Below, in pieces: positions 3 to 33,751 of a stretch of DNA of 59,269 nucleotides. The position numbers were made by a program, and so were the translations under genes. Position 1 is the first letter of the stretch. Each line of letters begins with the position of its first letter. The notes under the pieces are model-generated. The model saw nothing but the letters and a program-made list of their open reading frames with translations. It was not told the origin of the DNA and did not search any database. Origin of the DNA: a virus (Duplodnaviria; Caudoviricetes); the IMG/VR virus record IMGVR_UViG_3300028581_003812, positions 1-59,269 of that record. The stretch is one strand, 5' to 3'.

Positions 3-344
3 TTTCATGGTGCTGCACAGGCCGACAGTGTGGCAGGGTTCTGGGATGGCAGTGAAGAATTTCTGGAGCAAATTAACAAAGTGTCAGCTTTGAACCGCAG
101 AAATAAAATTACAGTGCAAGCGCCATTGATTGACAAATCTAAGAAAGAAATCATCAAACTGGGCATAAAACTTGGAGTGAATTTTAGTCAGACTTGGACC
201 TGCTATGAGGGAGAAGCACAGGCTTGTGGTGAATGTACTGCGTGCTCTTTGAGAATTAAAGGCTTCATAGATGCAGGGTACATAGACCCAATTTCTTATA
301 AAATTACAATACCTTGGAAAAAGTATAACTGCAAATCAGCATAA
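3..344 (+). CDS. queC: 7-cyano-7-deazaguanine (preQ0) synthase QueC, 5'-truncated by window edge
   Basis: Frame is open from position 3 (FHGAAQADSVAGFWDGSEEF...). It contains APLIDKSKKEII and the Zn motif TWTCYEG-x4-CGECTACSLR typical of QueC. Confidence 0.9.
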   Translation, partial: FHGAAQADSVAGFWDGSEEFLEQINKVSALNRRNKITVQAPLIDKSKKEIIKLGIKLGVNFSQTWTCYEGEAQACGECTACSLRIKGFIDAGYIDPISYKITIPWKKYNCKSA

Positions 345-1427
345 GGTATTATCAGCTACTGTAGGCTGATTATCAAATGTGGCCGTCCAGCCTGGTTTAG
401 TTGGGCAGTAATAAACGGTGCCTGTGAAATACATGCCGTTTTGTCCTAATGTGGGTGGACTGCCTTTGAAATAGAGTTTATTGCAACTATTGCAATTTCT
501 AAACGGGCCTTGTCCAAACACAGTCACACTACTGGGAATAGTAAAGCTAGGTATGTTACTACAACCTATAAATGCAAAGGTTCCTAAACTAGTAACGCTA
601 TTAGAAATGGTTATACTTGTTAATTTAGTGCAATAATAGAAAGCTAACTCTGCAATACTTGTCACGCCATCAGGTACAGTATATGTGGTTCTACTGGGAC
701 CGATCGGGTGTATTAACAATTGACTTTTGTTTTTATTAAATAGCACTCCTTGTGCATCATTGCTAAAATGCAGGTTGTTGGGACTAACTGCAAAAGCAGA
801 TAGCGCGTCACATCCAGTAAAAATGTTATTAGATATAGTATTACTCGGCTGACCACCTGTAACAAAGCTACCGCTCAGACCACTGCCAATGGTCACACCG
901 GTTAAGGATCTGCAACTGTTACACATCCTGTCGCCAATGGTGTTAACACTGTCTGGTATAGTTAAGCTTCTTAACAAGAGACATCTTTCGAATGACCATT
1001 CACCAATAGAGGTCACACCATTGGGAATTACAATATTACGCAAACCGGTGGTTCTTTGAAAATCAGAGCAAGATTGGAACGCATAACTCCCAATACTGAT
1101 CACACTGTTGGGGATGGTAACACCAGACAAGGATTGACAATTTTGAAATGCACTTCTACCAATGGCCTGCACACCATCATCCATGTTAGCATTAATGAGA
1201 GTTTTTCCTGTTCTGGTGTAACTTGCTTGTGTTATGGTAGTGTCACGGGACGTGGATGTTGTGCCATCTGAGTATGTAAAAACTGAGATGGGAAGGTTAT
1301 AGAATTTGCGCCAAGCCTGATTATTATACACCCAACCACCTTGCATTGTTCTCCATGCTCCTGAATCATATGCAGAAAGACCTTTGATGTTCCTCCAAGC
1401 CTTGTTTGAATAGATGCGCATGCTCAT
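336..1427 (-). CDS. BspA-type leucine-rich-repeat (LRR_5) protein, putative receptor-binding adhesin
   Basis: Repeats such as VTIPNSVISIGSYAFQSC, IVIPNGVTSIGEWSFERC and ITISNSVTSLGTFAFIGC. The N-terminus has three AWR pseudo-repeats. Confidence 0.85.
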   Translation of the reverse strand: MSMRIYSNKAWRNIKGLSAYDSGAWRTMQGGWVYNNQAWRKFYNLPISVFTYSDGTTSTSRDTTITQASYTRTGKTLINANMDDGVQAIGRSAFQNCQSLSGVTIPNSVISIGSYAFQSCSDFQRTTGLRNIVIPNGVTSIGEWSFERCLLLRSLTIPDSVNTIGDRMCNSCRSLTGVTIGSGLSGSFVTGGQPSNTISNNIFTGCDALSAFAVSPNNLHFSNDAQGVLFNKNKSQLLIHPIGPSRTTYTVPDGVTSIAELAFYYCTKLTSITISNSVTSLGTFAFIGCSNIPSFTIPSSVTVFGQGPFRNCNSCNKLYFKGSPPTLGQNGMYFTGTVYYCPTKPGWTATFDNQPTVADNTLC

Positions 1428-1627: not shown

Positions 1628-2527
1628 TTAATCTCCATAACTAAATCCACCGGAGTCGTATCCGCGGCGACCTGGCAGCGCTCCCGTGCCACGTAATTCA
1701 CTGGTCGGTAAATCATCTTCAGGGTATTCTTCAACAGTTTCTACTTCACCGGTACCTTCACCTTCCTTCTTCTCTGATGCAGGGGTGAAGCTGTTCTTAA
1801 ATTTTAATGAGTCAATAAAGTCTTGCACCACCTCTTTGTCGTTGGCCATGGTTTGATCATAGGCACGCGTAATGGCTTCAATTACTTCATTCTTGAGTTC
1901 AGGCGAATCATAAATGTCACCCTGTTCAATTGTTATTTCATCCGGTAGCTCCACAAATATTGGCATCCATTCCTTAATAAAACGAGTATTGGTATTTTTT
2001 AAAAATACATTTGCATTGGTTACTCCCACTGGTGCAGAAGGCGTTTCAGCTGCGCCACTTGTCAATGATTGACCAGACACACCTGCATCAATGGCTTTTT
2101 TAACTGCCACAGGGCTTGCAGAAGTACCACCCTCCATGTCCACCTTTACCACATTCAATAAATTATCAACAACTCTTGCAGTGTACTTGGCATCAGTACC
2201 ACCAAGCTTGAGCTCATTCTTGATGAGCTTCTCCAGCTCAATTCTGAATTTCATTTTTGAACCTGGATAAAACATGGAGTATTCCTTGCCATCAACTACA
2301 TGTGCCTCTGGTTTGAATAGTTTGGTTTTGATGGCCAGCAGCAAGTTGTTAGCTATTTCTGTCTTAGATTTACCATCTCTGGCTGCAGCTTTGCCAATGC
2401 CATAGCCTCCACTAGGACTTTTTTCAATATCCCCAGTGTAACCTATGTCATCCCCATAAATGGGTGCTTCCATGATGGGTTTTCTGGCATTATATGCTTC
2501 AAATATGTGTTTACAGTCATTATTCAT
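1628..2527 (-). CDS. Hypothetical late protein, possible internal head protein
   Basis: 299-aa ORF with TAAATA 7 nt upstream, N-terminal IFE/IME motifs and an acidic C-terminus. Confidence 0.55.
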   Translation of the reverse strand: MNNDCKHIFEAYNARKPIMEAPIYGDDIGYTGDIEKSPSGGYGIGKAAARDGKSKTEIANNLLLAIKTKLFKPEAHVVDGKEYSMFYPGSKMKFRIELEKLIKNELKLGGTDAKYTARVVDNLLNVVKVDMEGGTSASPVAVKKAIDAGVSGQSLTSGAAETPSAPVGVTNANVFLKNTNTRFIKEWMPIFVELPDEITIEQGDIYDSPELKNEVIEAITRAYDQTMANDKEVVQDFIDSLKFKNSFTPASEKKEGEGTGEVETVEEYPEDDLPTSELRGTGALPGRRGYDSGGFSYGD

Positions 2528-2528
2528 C

Positions 2529-2567
2529 TTGAAATATTTAATCTTTTACTTATAATAAATAGGAGGT
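2529..2567 (+). promoter_or_regulatory. Sigma70-type promoter (TTGAAA-N16-TATAAT) and Shine-Dalgarno AGGAGGT for the amidotransferase; overlaps a divergent late promoter
   Basis: TTGAAA 2529-2534, TATAAT 2551-2556, AGGAGGT 2561-2567. TATTTA at 2535-2540 is TAAATA on the minus strand. Confidence 0.7.
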
Positions 2568-2575
2568 AATATAAT

Positions 2576-3259
2576 ATTTGTGGCATATTTGGAGCTAAAG
2601 ACTTTGCGAATTACGTGAAGCTTTACAAAGAAAACAGGAAACGAGGTACGTTTTCCTATGGAGGCCTACTGATTGGCAGCAAAGTGCATGCCATACTCAA
2701 AACCCCTGGAGTCGCTAATCTTACCAACAAGCTCATCATTGAGTATGGTAAAACCAAGAGACACATAACTGATTTCAACGTTTTCTTAGGCCATACACAA
2801 GCACCTACATCTTCACAAAGAGCATTTACAGCCAAGACATCCCATCCCTTTCAGTACAAAGAGTGGATAGTTGCACACAATGGTGTACTGACAAATGACA
2901 AGGAATTAAAAAAACTCATACCAGACAAGAAGGCTTATAATGTTGTGGATTCATCTGTGATTGCACCTTTGCTGACAAAGCATCACAAGGAAACAAAAGA
3001 TGAAATTGTTGCAATCAAAAATACATGTTCCATGTTGAAGGGCACTTTTGGTCTCTGGATATACAATCAACAATCGGCCAATGTGTATCTGGCAAGGTCA
3101 GGCAGCACTCTGTTTGCTGATTATCTCAACAACATGTTTTCATCAACCAAGTACAGTGATTTTGTTGCCCTGGATGAAGGGTTAATTTACCTGTTAACCA
3201 CAGAAGGCATAACTGCTGTGGGCAAGTTTGCATCCAATTCGCCATTCTTCACATCATGA
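2576..3259 (+). CDS. Class II (Ntn) glutamine amidotransferase, ATT start
   Basis: Extending the 2615 ORF upstream gives ATT-TGT-GGC-ATA-TTT-GGA = (M)CGIFG. Other motifs are GHTQAPT, SHPF, VAHNGVLTN and VDSSVI. An in-frame TAA lies at 2567-2569. Confidence 0.85.
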   Translation: MCGIFGAKDFANYVKLYKENRKRGTFSYGGLLIGSKVHAILKTPGVANLTNKLIIEYGKTKRHITDFNVFLGHTQAPTSSQRAFTAKTSHPFQYKEWIVAHNGVLTNDKELKKLIPDKKAYNVVDSSVIAPLLTKHHKETKDEIVAIKNTCSMLKGTFGLWIYNQQSANVYLARSGSTLFADYLNNMFSSTKYSDFVALDEGLIYLLTTEGITAVGKFASNSPFFTS

Positions 3260-3936
3260 AGATAGCGTTCTATAGTGTCACAAGAAACAAGATTGAAGGC
3301 ACACCCTTTCATCGCAGTATTAATAAAATAATTAGAGCTATCCCCAATGAGCTTATAATGTATCATTACAAGGAAAACAATACTGAAGGTCTCAGCAAAT
3401 GTTACAATGCTTTTCTAAAAGAACATAGTAAATTCTATGATTATATTGTGTTTGTTCATGATGATGTGTACATAGATGATTTCAACATTCATGAAAAGCT
3501 AGAAACACATCACAAAGACTTTGATATAGTAGGATTAGCAGGTGGCATTAATCCCAAGATGCAAAAATTAGCTCTTTGGCATTTAATGTGTGGTGGCATA
3601 GGCGGTTCAAATCTGCGCGGCGCAGTTGCTCATTCAGTAAATGATAAGCAGATTTTTATGACTAGCTTTGGTCCCACACCCAGCAGGGTTACCATACTGG
3701 ATGGGTTATTTCTAAGTGTAAACACCAAACGTATTAAAGAAACAGGGTTTAAGTTTAATGAAAACTACACGTTTCATCATTATGACATTGCCAGCTGTTT
3801 GGATGCAAATAAATTAAAATTAAAATTAGGTGTTGCTCCTATTTGGGTGGTGCACAAATCTCCCGGGCTATCTAATGTTAATGATGATGTTTTTATCCAT
3901 AGTCAAGAGAAGTTCTTGCAAGAGTACAATAATTGA
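3256..3936 (+). CDS. GT-A fold (GT2-like) glycosyltransferase
   Basis: GLSKCYN, YIVFVHDDVYI (DxD-like), IVGLAG, LDGLFL and FHHYDIASCL. Confidence 0.8.
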   Translation: MKIAFYSVTRNKIEGTPFHRSINKIIRAIPNELIMYHYKENNTEGLSKCYNAFLKEHSKFYDYIVFVHDDVYIDDFNIHEKLETHHKDFDIVGLAGGINPKMQKLALWHLMCGGIGGSNLRGAVAHSVNDKQIFMTSFGPTPSRVTILDGLFLSVNTKRIKETGFKFNENYTFHHYDIASCLDANKLKLKLGVAPIWVVHKSPGLSNVNDDVFIHSQEKFLQEYNN

Positions 3937-5326: not shown

Positions 5327-5611
5327 GTGAAAGGATATGATCCTACTGAACGGCTAAATGAATATGAGCAAACACATTTGTTTTTATCTTTTTGTTCGCT
5401 AATAACTCTGTTGCATACTAAAAAATTGAATTTAGCAAATGTATTTATTTTATTGCTTAAAAATAATAATGTGAGATCCTTGTTTCTAAAGTATTGTGAA
5501 TTAAGAAACGATTTTAGCGCAATAAAATTTTTCTTGCAATTTGACTCAGGACTGTATAAAAGTAAGTATGTTATGAAATTCCTAAACACACACAAAAAAA
5601 ATCTGCTATGA
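5327..5611 (+). CDS. Hypothetical protein
   Basis: 94-aa ORF with TTGATT...TATAAT upstream and an ATGA overlap with the next gene. Confidence 0.6.
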   Translation: MKGYDPTERLNEYEQTHLFLSFCSLITLLHTKKLNLANVFILLLKNNNVRSLFLKYCELRNDFSAIKFFLQFDSGLYKSKYVMKFLNTHKKNLL

Positions 5612-5814
5612 AACACAACGCAATAGTTAAACTGGATCCGAAAAAAAGTAAAGACAAGGCCTATTTTGATAGGGCTTGGAATAAATTTAATCGTGAATTC
5701 TTGAATTCTGGAGTTCTAGAAGATCTTAAATTAAAGAGGTGCTATTATAAACCCAGTGCACTCAAGAAAGTTAAGAAACAGATTGTGCGGTTCAAGTGGA
5801 AACACTTAAAGTGA
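5608..5814 (+). CDS. rpsU: Phage-encoded ribosomal protein bS21 homolog
   Basis: 68-aa basic protein. FDRAWNKFNREFLNSGVLEDLKLKRCYYKPSALKKVKK matches the bS21 pattern (ALRRFKR...GIL.E.R.R..YEKPS..RK.K). Confidence 0.8.
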   Translation: MKHNAIVKLDPKKSKDKAYFDRAWNKFNREFLNSGVLEDLKLKRCYYKPSALKKVKKQIVRFKWKHLK

Positions 5815-9207: not shown

Positions 9208-10101
9208 GTGACTAACATACTAATTCTTGGCAACGGGTACGTCGGCAAGCATCTCTACAATCATTTGTCAAAAAATAATAATTTGCATGTGTCCATAGTG
9301 GGCAAGAATGATGTAAATTATTTTGACCAAATAGCTTTAAAGAAATACATACGTGAAATGTACAATCTATTTCACAATGTTGCTGACGATTTTATTATTT
9401 TAAATTGTTCAGGGTTCACAGGCAGACCCAATGTTGATGAATGTGAAATTAAAAAAGAGTTATGCTTGAAATACAATACAGAGCTGCCTGTGTTCTTAAG
9501 CAATTTTTGCAAGAGAAACAAGTTGTGGCTCATAAATGTTTCCAGCGGCTGCATTTACAACGGTTATGAGAAAGATTTTACAGAACTGGATGTGCCTAAT
9601 TTTGGCATGTACAGTAATGCAAGCAGCTTTTATTCCAAGTGCAAACATTTGAATGAAATTTTAGTAAACAGCGATGTGACTACCAATTTAAGAATAAGAA
9701 TGCCATTTTGCTCTTATAATTCTGATAGAAATATAATTTGTAAAATTTTACAATATGACAATTTAATTAGTTATGATAACAGTTTAACCAGCTTAGAAGA
9801 CTTCAGTGTTTTTATTGAAACATTTATAAACAATCTGCATTACAGAAACAATCCTGGCATTTATAATGTAGTAAATCCAGGCAGAGTCAGTTCCAAACAA
9901 ATCGTGCAACTCCTTTCTTCTAATAATTTAATTAATAAGAATTGGAACTTTGTTGATTTAAAAGACATTAAAACAAAAGCAAATCGTTCCAATTGTGTGT
10001 TGTCAGATGCTAAAATAGCAGACATGGGGCTGCAGCTACCACCAGCAATGGCATCACTGGAATCAAGCATAAAGGAGTTGGCAAATGAACTTGGTAATTA
10101 A
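9208..10101 (+). CDS. NAD(P)-dependent nucleotide-sugar epimerase/reductase (RmlD-like, NDP-rhamnose 3,5-epimerase/4-reductase type)
   Basis: ILILGNGYVG Rossmann motif, GFTGRPNVDECE, SSGCIY, catalytic YSKCK and LRIRMP. Confidence 0.85.
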   Translation: MTNILILGNGYVGKHLYNHLSKNNNLHVSIVGKNDVNYFDQIALKKYIREMYNLFHNVADDFIILNCSGFTGRPNVDECEIKKELCLKYNTELPVFLSNFCKRNKLWLINVSSGCIYNGYEKDFTELDVPNFGMYSNASSFYSKCKHLNEILVNSDVTTNLRIRMPFCSYNSDRNIICKILQYDNLISYDNSLTSLEDFSVFIETFINNLHYRNNPGIYNVVNPGRVSSKQIVQLLSSNNLINKNWNFVDLKDIKTKANRSNCVLSDAKIADMGLQLPPAMASLESSIKELANELGN

Positions 10102-16934: not shown

Positions 16935-18644
16935 ATGCCTAAAAAACTAGAAAACAAGTATTATTTGGGTAATGAGAGCTTGCCTTCTGCAGAGTCTTTG
17001 TTTGATTATTCAGAGCATCCTGAGTGGGTACTGGACATAGCCAAGTGCAGAAAGAACATATTGTATTTTGCAGAGAATTTTTTCTTCATAACAAATCTGG
17101 ATGAAGGCAAGATGAAGATCAAGCTGCATAGCTATCAAAAAAGAATTTTAAGAAGTTTGCGAGACAGCAGATTTGTTTGTCTGTTGGCTTCACGACAGAT
17201 AGGCAAGACCACATTGATGACCATATATGCATTGTGGATTGCATGTTTCTTTGAAGACCAACGCATATTGGTGGTGGCCAACAAAGAGCAAACTGCCATT
17301 AACATTTTCAAAAGAATCAGAATGGCTTATGAAAAACTGCCCAACTACTTGAAACCTGGCACAGTGGAATATGGCAAAACTGCCATGTCTCTAGGCAATG
17401 GGAGCAGCATTGGCATTTCCACCACCAGCAGTGATGCAGGTCGAGGTGACAGTTGCAACATCCTCATTCTGGATGAGCTGGCTTTCATTGACAATCATCT
17501 GGTGGAACAGTTCTGGAGTTCTGTGTATCCAATCATTTCATCGTCCAAGAAGTCCAAGATATTTGTTGCGTCAACGCCAAATGGTACTGGCAATCTGTTT
17601 CATGATTTGTACTCTGGAGCCATTGATGGTAAAAATGACTGGAAAGCAGAAAAGGTGGATTGGTGGGAATTTCCAGGCAGAGATGAAGCATGGAAAGACA
17701 AAACCATTCGCACTCTGGGAAGCAGAGAAGTTTTTGATCAAGAGTTTGGCAATGTGTTTTTGGAAACAGGTGAGAGTGCTTTGGATGAAAAATTATTTGA
17801 AGAAATGAAATCTGAATGCATTGAACCCAAATTTATTTTCAATGAAGGCAAATATTTGCTGTGGGATGAACCAAAGAATGACCATCTGTATGTGGTGGGT
17901 GTGGACATAAGTGAAGGCATTGGTGAAGCTGCAAGTGTCATACAGATCATGGATATCACAGATTTGAGAGAAATAAAACAAGTGGCCTGTTATCATGATC
18001 GCCAAATTAGCCCTTATAATTTCACTGCCAAATTGCATGAAATATTGCAACATTGGGGGTCACCTCTGGCCATGATAGAAAGAAACAACTGCGGTTCACA
18101 AGTGGTGGACCAACTCAAGAATACCCATGCTTATGAAAACATTGTTTCTTATGGCATTAAATCTGGCCCTGCTTCATACAGTAAAATTGGTGTGCAAGCC
18201 CATACCAACACCAAGTACAAGGGCGTCATGAACATGCGCTATTGGATGAACGAAGTCAAAGCATTAAAAGTGCATGATTTGAAGACTTTGAATGAACTGA
18301 AAAACTTTGTCAGATACCCAAATGGCACTTGGGGTGCAAAACCTGGTTCAGACAACTGGGATGACAGGGTGATGAGCTTGATGTGGGCACTCATCATCCT
18401 GGAGAATGATTTGGTAGAAAAATATTTCGAAGTAGTACAATATGATAAGAACAAGAAGCCGTTAAAATTAAAAGCCTTGGATTACGGTGTTAAATATTTT
18501 ATTAATCCCACATCCATGTATTCAAATGAAAAAATGGGTGCAGATGGTCTGCCACCATTGCCCATTGTCATCTCACAAGATGGTAATGAGGAACATAATG
18601 AAATAGCTGACTTAGAATCGCAAGGTTACCGCCATTTATCATAA
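16935..18644 (+). CDS. Terminase large subunit (T4 gp17-like)
   Basis: LHSYQK, ASRQIGKTT, LILDELAFI, ASTPNG, FDQEF, GVDISEG, IERNN and DDRVMSL. Confidence 0.97.
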   Translation: MPKKLENKYYLGNESLPSAESLFDYSEHPEWVLDIAKCRKNILYFAENFFFITNLDEGKMKIKLHSYQKRILRSLRDSRFVCLLASRQIGKTTLMTIYALWIACFFEDQRILVVANKEQTAINIFKRIRMAYEKLPNYLKPGTVEYGKTAMSLGNGSSIGISTTSSDAGRGDSCNILILDELAFIDNHLVEQFWSSVYPIISSSKKSKIFVASTPNGTGNLFHDLYSGAIDGKNDWKAEKVDWWEFPGRDEAWKDKTIRTLGSREVFDQEFGNVFLETGESALDEKLFEEMKSECIEPKFIFNEGKYLLWDEPKNDHLYVVGVDISEGIGEAASVIQIMDITDLREIKQVACYHDRQISPYNFTAKLHEILQHWGSPLAMIERNNCGSQVVDQLKNTHAYENIVSYGIKSGPASYSKIGVQAHTNTKYKGVMNMRYWMNEVKALKVHDLKTLNELKNFVRYPNGTWGAKPGSDNWDDRVMSLMWALIILENDLVEKYFEVVQYDKNKKPLKLKALDYGVKYFINPTSMYSNEKMGADGLPPLPIVISQDGNEEHNEIADLESQGYRHLS

Positions 18645-18652
18645 ATAATTAA

Positions 18653-19756
18653 ATGGCAGATATATCAATATCTCAAATAAGTCAAGGAACTCCCACTACA
18701 GGCATTGTTGTCCCGTGGTCCGACGGTGCATCCACATATCAAGCACAACTCAGTTCCTTACTTACTGCTACTGGTGATATTGGCACTGCAGCCATACAGA
18801 TACCCAAAGGTACTACAAGTCAAAGACCAGCTTCTTCTGCAAACGGGATGTTGCGTATGAATACAACAACTAACTCCTTAGAAGCATACTATGACAATAA
18901 CTGGATAACAATTTCTTCATTACTACCATACACAATTTATCTCTGGGGTGCAGGTGGTGGCGGCGGAACTGCTGGCGGCTGGGGATACGGCGCTGCAGGA
19001 GGTGGCGGTGGATTTGCCTCAGGTGATATAAACCTACCGGCAGGGACTGCCTTAACACTTGTGGTAGGGCAAGGTGGAATAGTGAACGGCACATCTGTTT
19101 CATTTGGAGGAGGCGGCCAAGCTAATAGGAATAATGTAGATAACCGCTACGGGTCCAATGGTGGAGGGTACACAGGCATATTTTTAAATTCTGTCACACA
19201 AGCCAATTGCGTACTCATTGCAGGTGGCGGTGGTGGTGGTGGTTCCTCAAGAACAGGTGTAGGTAATTATGGTGGTGCAGGAGGTGGTGCACAAGCACAA
19301 GATGGTAATTCACCATATGATAATAAACCTGGGTACAGAGGCAGAGGCGCTGGCCAATCCGGTGCACCAGCACAAGCATCATGTGACGGCCTTAACACGA
19401 ACTTCCCACCTGCAGCTCTGATAGGTGGAACCTGTCAAAATAACGGTTATGGTGGAGCAGGTGGAGGTGGATATTTCGGTGGATCAGCTGGTGGATTTTT
19501 TGAAAGCAATACAATGGGTGGTGGAGGTGGGGGTTCAGGATACGTAAATTCACAATACATTCTTAATTCAGTCAATACTGCAGGGACTAATTCTCAAGGT
19601 GCAGGTAGCACTAATATATATTATACCAGCAGTGTCGGTACAGGAGGAGCACCCTCCACAGCAGGGCAAAACGGGTATGCTGTTCTAGTGAATAGAATCA
19701 CTGGTCAGATATCAAGTTATTATTACACCGGCAGCAACATAACAATAACACTTTAA
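18653..19756 (+). CDS. Glycine-rich fibre/adhesin protein (MADISISQI family)
   Basis: Shared N-terminal anchor, the fibre motif IPKGTTSQRP...GMLRMNTTTNSLEAY...W, then a polyglycine domain (LWGAGGGGG, LIAGGGGGGG). Confidence 0.8.
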   Translation: MADISISQISQGTPTTGIVVPWSDGASTYQAQLSSLLTATGDIGTAAIQIPKGTTSQRPASSANGMLRMNTTTNSLEAYYDNNWITISSLLPYTIYLWGAGGGGGTAGGWGYGAAGGGGGFASGDINLPAGTALTLVVGQGGIVNGTSVSFGGGGQANRNNVDNRYGSNGGGYTGIFLNSVTQANCVLIAGGGGGGGSSRTGVGNYGGAGGGAQAQDGNSPYDNKPGYRGRGAGQSGAPAQASCDGLNTNFPPAALIGGTCQNNGYGGAGGGGYFGGSAGGFFESNTMGGGGGGSGYVNSQYILNSVNTAGTNSQGAGSTNIYYTSSVGTGGAPSTAGQNGYAVLVNRITGQISSYYYTGSNITITL

Positions 19757-33700: not shown

Positions 33701-33751
33701 AATATTATTTATCGTATATTGATTTTTATAAACCTAATATATAATAAGATT

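Follow-up and report, generated by a model that had tools for sequence, protein, structure and literature searches.

AUU is the start codon of two classic E. coli genes, pcnB and infC, the latter encoding initiation factor 3 (IF3); in both the AUU is conserved, is discriminated against by IF3 and is weak. Comparable sites have been described in S. aureus, where cvfC1 (AUU), ccpN (AUA) and infC (AUA) have extended Shine-Dalgarno (SD) sequences and yield about 10% of the output of AUG (PMC13009471). Belinky, Rogozin and Koonin 2017 reported that weaker start codons accompany stronger SDs; this is a weak genome-wide trend for GUG and UUG, from which AUU was excluded as too rare and in which coupled switches were not demonstrable (PMC5622118). 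Leaderless initiation, finally, depends on AUG in E. coli and in a number of other bacteria, as summarized in a review (PMC9031893). Here we describe a start site in the virus record IMGVR_UViG_3300028581_003812 (Duplodnaviria; Caudoviricetes), whose whole stretch of 59,269 nucleotides we call the window. The site belongs to a gene for a stand-alone protein resembling class II glutamine amidotransferases, and its initiation codon appears to be ATT behind a strong SD. A literature search, supplementary files aside, found no paper describing a phage amidotransferase gene that begins with ATT or AUU.

We put the probability that translation of this amidotransferase-like gene begins at AUU 2576, rescued by the strong SD, at about 0.85. 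The sequence-only reading had proposed the same, and comparative, structural and independent-assembly evidence strongly supports it. The features of the site, which are directly observable in the DNA, are the following:

2561..2567, plus strand: SD sequence AGGAGGT, 8 nt before the ATT; its GGAGG core ends 9 nt before the ATT
2567..2569, plus strand: in-frame TAA closing the upstream frame, from sequence and translation
2576..2578, plus strand: ATT, the predicted initiation codon, from conservation in relatives and in independent contigs
2579..2581, plus strand: TGT encoding Cys2, predicted to be the N-terminal nucleophile once the initiator Met has been cleaved off, from invariance and superposition on GlmS
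2576..3259, plus strand: coding sequence of the stand-alone class II (Ntn) glutamine-amidotransferase-like protein, 227 amino acids (aa) plus stop, from Pfam, PDB profile, AlphaFold2 and VIA comparisons
2615..2617, plus strand: GTG, the first canonical in-frame start, chosen by gene callers; its 214-aa product lacks Cys2 and the first strand

After the TAA, the codons run TAT AAT ATT TGT GGC ATA TTT GGA, translated as a stop followed by YNICGIFGAK..., and the frame runs on for 227 codons before it reaches the TGA at 3257-3259. The SD, the stop, the ATT and the Cys codon thus lie as first described, and the TAA does bar an upstream start: ATT is the only start codon, near-cognate codons included, between the TAA and the Cys codon. 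The open reading frame (ORF) finder accepts ATG, GTG and TTG starts only, and its list for this frame holds just the 214-aa ORF from the GTG (2615..3259). The SD is predicted to pair with a generic anti-SD at -11.6 kcal/mol in a 10-nt duplex calculation. RNA structure prediction around the start gave no notable fold (minimum free energy -12.5 kcal/mol, z -1.44) and left the SD unpaired, and no Rfam family approached threshold near the start site.

The AGGAGGT heptamer by itself is not above chance: the window holds five copies against 3.63 expected, and 31 of 100 shuffles reach five. For this reason the case for the start site rests on the relatives, in which conservation and covariation, both directly observed, do exceed chance. 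In a survey of the window for strong SD-like sites with the start of an ORF of at least 50 aa within 4-12 nt, two preceded a real gene start, namely the AGGAGGT/ATT site and an AAGGAG-7 nt-ATG site at 10072/10085 (10072-10087), which leads a 124-aa ORF without a family match. The claim that the former is the only optimally spaced perfect SD in the window was therefore nearly right, the start at 10085 being SD-led as well. As a separate observation, the window carries eight plus-strand copies of AGGAGG, and four of them lie in an ORF at 18653-19756 that matches the ALK/LTK glycine-rich domain (1.4e-15); because they are inside that ORF, we read these four as coding repeats and not as ribosome-binding sites.

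The ATT itself is not peculiar to one assembly. Among related viral loci that cover residue 1, at 67-77% protein identity, 11/11 read ATT-TGY, and all have AGGAGG or GGAGG upstream. In addition, contigs of four other lake-metagenome runs from four studies (X7, X8, X10, X11) leave positions 2576-2578 unchanged in 4/4 cases, with one of them (X10) carrying a synonymous T2581C in the Cys codon. Since relatives and independent contigs also read ATT, an assembly error and a private mutation are excluded; the probability that the codon is a misread or privately mutated ATG is negligible, the more so as 44 of the 79 loci in the family scan described below share it. An alignment of orthologues and a search for ATG at this position had been named as checks by the sequence-only reading, and both came out in its favour: the 11 close relatives keep ATT together with the SD, distant ATG relatives lack a well-spaced SD, and the four independent runs read ATT and not ATG.

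The chemistry of the encoded protein fixes the position of the start. The 227-aa product matches the Pfam families GATase_6 (1.7e-9) and GATase_7, and a family profile run against PDB finds the glutaminase domain of GlmS (1xff_A, 8.3e-12), with its HNG and D motifs aligned. An AlphaFold2 model made from a 29-sequence alignment (mean pLDDT 92.1, pTM 0.90) has GlmS, GFAT and PurF as its top Foldseek matches (E 3.2e-12 to 2j6h_A). VIA-align superposes model residues 2..220 on chain residues 1..226 of GlmS 1xff_A (Z 24.0, rmsd 2.6 A, 207 residues) and gives Z of 22.8 for PurF 1ecb_D and 18.9 for EgtC 4zfk_C. The model shows the four-layer arrangement of Ntn hydrolases, and the 227-aa ORF has, as modelled, the fold of a class II (Ntn) glutamine amidotransferase. 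Structural alignments to GlmS and PurF all begin at model residue 2 and chain residue 1 or 2, and Cys2 of the model falls on residue 1, the catalytic Cys1, of GlmS 1xff_A. Cys2 is invariant in 29/29 aligned sequences, as are N102, G103 and D125, which align with the HNG and with the D of the TD motif of GlmS in the profile alignment. In this enzyme class the Asn-Gly pair forms the oxyanion hole and the Asp binds the substrate amino group. Because Cys2 is invariant and occupies the position of the N-terminal catalytic Cys in GlmS-type enzymes, it must be N-terminal here too, so that the requirement for a Cys directly after the initiator, established for other enzymes of the class, holds for this family.

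Like GlmS, PurF and EgtC, the phage protein combines an Ntn fold, a Cys right after the initiator and Asn-Gly and Asp motifs; unlike them it is a free-standing protein of 227 aa that lacks a fused synthase domain, and its family was found in viral or metagenomic DNA only. An alignment scan of 185,579 bacterial and archaeal species genomes, one genome each, found no relative. Phage GenBank records gave no DNA-level match, and their protein-level matches are distant amidotransferases only (24-30% identity). As a side observation, residues 72-79 (GHTQAPTS) are invariant in the family alignment, including the Gln at position 75. In other class II amidotransferases this position is held by what we take to be the Arg that binds the glutamine carboxylate; if so, the substrate of the phage enzyme may differ from free glutamine.

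Translation from a downstream canonical codon such as GTG 2615, which would make a truncated non-catalytic protein or mark a decaying gene, would fit the choices of gene callers. Among the best 34 database protein matches (65-99% identity), 33 are 187-216 aa long and cover at most 94% of the query; P0001, for one, has 214 aa, and the remaining match (P0003) is wrongly extended from a spurious upstream TTG. We nevertheless judge a downstream start very unlikely. The first 13 codons (ICGIFGAKDF...) are conserved at the protein level among relatives while differing synonymously after the ATT (TGT/TGC, GGC/GGT/GGA, TTT/TTC), and among close relatives the first downstream canonical start shifts between codon 14 and codon 163. 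More distant relatives have the complete protein: database matches at 49-60% identity have 227-229 aa, and 15 of 18 fetched sequences begin MCGIFG or MCAIFG, the others being truncated (2) or an extended form (1). A start at GTG 2615 would moreover leave the enzyme without its nucleophile and the fold without its first strand, and the structure model thus agrees with the earlier prediction that its product would be a dead enzyme. Judged by these comparisons, the public gene calls for the ATT clade are N-terminally truncated, starting at assorted downstream ATG, GTG or TTG codons with the catalytic Cys removed.

In the 11 close relatives the upstream frame is closed 2-7 codons away in 4 and open without ATG, GTG or TTG in 6; the exception (L010) has a TTG 22 codons upstream, farther out than the codon at which the divergent gene starts. 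Some class II amidotransferases are known to shed a propeptide, and a propeptide made by stop read-through or from another start could in principle be self-cleaved to expose the Cys. Against this, the window and L001, L002, L004 and L006 each have an in-frame stop 2-7 codons upstream and no start codon from there to the ATT; close relatives do not share the position of the stop, and the bases before the ATT vary freely, the SD excepted. We consider a propeptide extremely improbable and retain the AUU as the start.

Further support for an AUU start comes from the way start codon and SD go together across the family. A start-neutral scan, which used peptide patterns without the first residue, kept the best 80 of 199 relatives, and 79 of these cover the start. 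ATT-TGY is found in 44/79, all 44 with an SD core of at least 5 nt, and ATG-TGY in 35/79, 32 of which have no such core; the three exceptions carry AAGGA, AGGTG, or a GGAGGAG 13 nt away. Adding the loci from two more scans and removing duplicates gave 78 unique loci, 45 with ATT-TGY and 33 with ATG-TGY; one of the added scans reported 349 relatives, and at most 80 per scan entered this set. The energy of the SD:anti-SD duplex ranges from -9.0 to -13.7 kcal/mol (mean -11.8) in the 45 ATT loci and from +2.6 to -9.6 kcal/mol (mean -1.4) in the 33 ATG loci, where the two strongest (L117 and L119, about -9.5) have their purine tract mis-spaced, 11-13 nt from the ATG. GGAGG stands 8-10 nt upstream in 42/42 unique ATT loci; the distance from the end of the core to the codon is 8 nt in 24 of them, 9 nt in 12 and 10 nt in 6.

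The weak start codon is ATT in 45/45 unique non-ATG loci and never GTG, TTG or ATA. Codon 1 reads ATT in 42/42 unique loci, while conserved internal Ile columns are mixed (ATA 35 and ATT 7 in one; ATT 24, ATA 14 and ATC 4 in another) and total Ile codon usage in the ATT genes is 314 ATT, 235 ATA and 58 ATC. Because codon 1 is always ATT while internal Ile codons mix, its T is, to judge from this usage, selected as a base of the start codon and not as a synonymous site. We also searched the whole viral collection for counter-examples in which a well-spaced SD precedes ATG (GGAGG-N6-11-ATG-TGY-GSN-ATH-TTY-GG), and none of the 19 stretches found came from the family; they are other amidotransferases, whose scores with the family profile do not exceed 46 bits, where true members score about 200-370 bits. 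The pattern ATT-TGY-GSN-ATA-TTT-GG occurs in at least 117 stretches, and among the matches listed 9/83 are family members, all with an SD-like tract; this pattern scan, with 80 loci listed, is a sample and not an exhaustive census. An earlier widened scan with ATT in 33/35 loci was set aside and not used for the association, one of its search patterns having contained the Ile residue and so being biased.

A maximum-likelihood tree of the 78 proteins, with the first residue left out, has at least 8 start-codon changes and at least 6 SD changes. Independent ATT/ATG pairs number 5 if well-supported branches alone are counted and 8 if all are; averaged across pairings, the SD follows ATT in 3.8, the opposite holds in 0 and there is no difference in 1.2. 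All informative pairs point the same way, SD with ATT. An earlier tree of 72 loci gave 6 start-codon changes and 4 pairs. Two comparisons illustrate such switches. L078 (ATG) and L081 (ATT) differ upstream by no more than an 11-nt indel, which brings in GGAGGT together with its spacer. Between L252/L253 (ATT, -9.0 kcal/mol) and L254-L257 (ATG, -7.8 kcal/mol), whose proteins are 88% identical and whose leaders are equally long, G-to-A changes weaken the purine tract in the ATG loci.

The two kinds of loci also differ in the placement of promoter-like boxes. Two such boxes precede the start in the window:

2529..2534, plus strand: TTGAAA, a -35-like hexamer from the promoter scan, conserved in relatives
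2551..2556, plus strand: TATAAT, a -10-like hexamer, with 4 nt between it and the SD

The arrangement TTGAAA-16 nt-TATAAT (2529-2556) matches 11/12 consensus positions in the promoter scan and predicts a transcription start within or at the SD. A TATAAT-like box lies 4-6 nt before GGAGG in 34/42 unique ATT loci. A perfect TATAAT precedes the ATG by 6-9 nt (mode 9) in 22 of the 30 unique ATG loci surveyed, a spacing that suggests near-leaderless mRNAs with leaders of about 0-3 nt. The ATG relatives would then resemble leaderless lambda cI (PMC9031893) in having no SD and a TATAAT close to the ATG; they would differ from it in that, at the 9-nt spacing, the predicted leader is about 3 nt and not zero, with 5' ends deduced from sequence alone. 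The dependence of leaderless initiation on AUG would explain why AUU occurs only with an SD-bearing leader.

Three further observations concern these regions. On the minus strand, the TTGAAA at 2529..2534 overlaps a TAAATA-type motif that precedes the divergent gene's ATG by 7 nt. Within the window a TAAATA motif (often ATAAATA or TTAAATA) stands 0-14 nt before 27 starts of ORFs of at least 60 aa on both strands, GTG starts included, with a spacing of exactly 5 nt at 14/27; examples lie at 18642, 22734, 25837, 41614 and 53169 on the plus strand and at 33711, 15934 and 12122 on the minus strand. This motif looks like the late promoter box of T4-type phages, set where transcripts would start on the start codon or beside it, so that late mRNAs would be leaderless; alternatively, it may be a translation signal. 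Finally, seven loci (L072, L085, L089, L092, L099, L114 and L116) share nearly the same 25-nt upstream block (...CAGGAGAGGAGGGTAAC..ATT), which replaces the TATAAT region; they sit on three different branches of the protein tree, and a block common to three branches suggests a 5' cassette recombined between phages.

A model that accommodates these data begins with the initiator tRNA reading AUU 2576 while the AGGAGGU 8 nt upstream holds it on the weak codon. Removal of formyl-Met, for which Cys is permissive as second residue, would expose the Cys as residue 1, the nucleophile that Ntn-type class II amidotransferases require. The family would have two interchangeable start architectures, AUU with a strong SD or SD-less AUG 6-9 nt after TATAAT, and evolution would have toggled between them several times, AUG with a well-spaced GGAGG and AUU without GGAGG never having been seen. 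Because the weak codon pairs with a strong SD and the strong codon with none, and because strong with strong is absent, initiation strength appears to be held within bounds, probably low ones.

The start site probably governs more than one gene. Its neighbours are:

3256..3936, plus strand: Glyco_tranf_2_5-like gene, 226 aa (Pfam 3.9e-9), whose ATG overlaps the amidotransferase stop (ATGA)
1628..2527, minus strand: divergent gene on the upstream side, 299 aa, without a family match, starting 48 nt from the ATT
5608..5814, plus strand: phage ribosomal protein bS21, 68 aa (PF01165, 29.5 bits), no SD upstream

The ATGA overlap of the amidotransferase stop and the downstream ATG (3256-3259 in the window) recurs in 75/78 unique loci and marks a conserved two-gene unit. 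Given this overlap, the amidotransferase and the Glyco_tranf_2_5-like gene are probably translationally coupled, and one start site would probably set the output of both. The window is a complete IMG/VR record with an estimated completeness of 26% and 36.4% G+C. It carries the myophage markers T4-type large terminase, tail sheath and gp6-like baseplate protein, as well as a DnaB-like helicase and a gp32-like protein; between the last two, in the replication module, lies the bS21 gene, about 3 kb downstream of the start site on the same strand. A homologue search with this bS21 found 18 relatives, in phages or metagenomes only, and the bS21 alignment scan found none in bacterial or archaeal genomes. 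In PDB it is marginally closest to 9i5v_9 and 7jil_z, a weak match (E about 1e-3), and its relatives have an invariant Trp near the C-terminus (W64). The search with the HtrL_YibB-like domain returned three named bacterial matches from unrelated groups (a Chitinophagia MAG, a Neisseriaceae bacterium and a Romboutsia MAG), and no tRNA genes were found in the window; searches through bS21, the amidotransferase, this domain and tRNAs led to no host call. The left end of the window (336-1427, minus strand) encodes a BspA-type leucine-rich-repeat protein (LRR_5, 4.8e-53).

Several points weigh against an SD-rescued AUU start and against the evolutionary account built on it. The style of the phage appears largely SD-independent, most genes having no SD and only one other start in the window a strong one, and if host ribosomes ignore SDs, as in Bacteroidia, the GGAGG would need a special ribosome state. 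Transcription from the TATAAT would start inside the SD and might shorten it, and the near-leaderless character of the ATG relatives is deduced purely from sigma-70 spacing rules. AUU use by ribosomes, Met removal, transcription starts and expression level are likewise deduced, and the run search listed no RNA runs holding the locus. The sign test over independent pairs has a median p of 0.125 (0.125-0.25 across the two trees), the pairs being too few. The upstream block (...GGAGGGTAAC...) is similar in several ATT lineages, so a single ATT+SD cassette may have travelled by recombination, and there may be fewer than 8 origins that are truly independent.

The covariation might also reflect regulation. 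AUU with SD could act as a sensor, and not just as an attenuator, with an output that goes up under weak discrimination by IF3 or where the anti-SD can be reached, as on ribosomes that lack or exchange bS21 in a Bacteroidia-type host. We regard this as unlikely, and as equally unlikely its extension, which would tie the amidotransferase/glycosyltransferase-like pair to an initiation machinery remodelled by the phage bS21. In its favour, AUU belongs to the codon class rejected by IF3 (PMC9723500, PMC13009471), and high IF3 inhibits leaderless AUG mRNAs while relaxed infC mutants enhance them, as the review states (PMC9031893). Because IF3 disfavours AUU and leaderless AUG alike, both architectures of the family would be IF3-sensitive. 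The phage carries bS21 on the same strand nearby, and the start is ATT without exception in the 45 non-ATG loci. In Flavobacterium, it is preferentially the ribosomes lacking bS21 that translate strong-SD mRNAs (PMC9976891, PMC13000453), and the predicted hosts of freshwater bS21 myophages are Bacteroidetes (PMC9723584).

On the other side, nothing in the sequence links the site to bS21, and simple compensation alone explains the covariation. The bS21 gene of the phage has no SD, let alone an extended one of the rpsU type (below -13 kcal/mol), and the amidotransferase SD, at -11.6 kcal/mol, is weaker than the value below -13 given for rpsU in PMC9976891, though the two figures come from different calculation methods. 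In the phages of PMC9723584, bS21 sits in the structural module, unlike in the window. A broader version concerns the freshwater bS21 myophages of about 200 kb, in which the early two-gene unit would be kept in IF3-disfavoured architectures by selection for translation that depends on the initiation machinery, and not merely for low output; we hold this to be doubtful. The repeated switching between two states and the absence of SD with AUG are its basis, and the machinery state in question, which we would name just as hesitantly, would be IF3 activity or the accessibility of the anti-SD as set by bS21. The simpler reading is compensation, with initiation strength confined to a certain range, and it accounts for the data as well as control by IF3 or bS21 does.

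Set beside the systems described at the outset, the phage gene is like infC and pcnB of E. coli in that AUU is conserved among orthologues with no alternative canonical start, and unlike them in being the gene of a phage Ntn enzyme without autoregulatory logic, in a family that toggles between AUU with SD and SD-less AUG and that is known here from sequence. It shares with cvfC1, ccpN and infC of S. aureus an odd start codon and a strong SD at good spacing, both conserved; the S. aureus sites come from ribosome profiling and from tests with reporters (PMC13009471), and the phage start is deduced and would operate in a host that, to judge by the phage's own genes, seems largely SD-independent. 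In contrast with the genome-wide trend of PMC5622118, the coupling here is nearly all-or-none, within a single gene family, and involves AUU.

An AUU start with an SD is of a known type, and what the phage amidotransferase site adds is the evolutionary toggle. The site is also a well-documented example of a natural AUU start, a kind that is uncommon in bacteria and still less common in phages, at a position that amidotransferase chemistry fixes to the codon, and with it an unusually clean evolutionary dataset for the trade-off between start codon and SD strength. Gene callers remove the catalytic Cys, which makes annotations and functional screens of the clade's proteins misleading. The start site is also a ready test construct for effects of phage bS21 and IF3 on start-site selection. 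If it does act as a sensor, it would be a natural phage reporter of ribosome remodelling.

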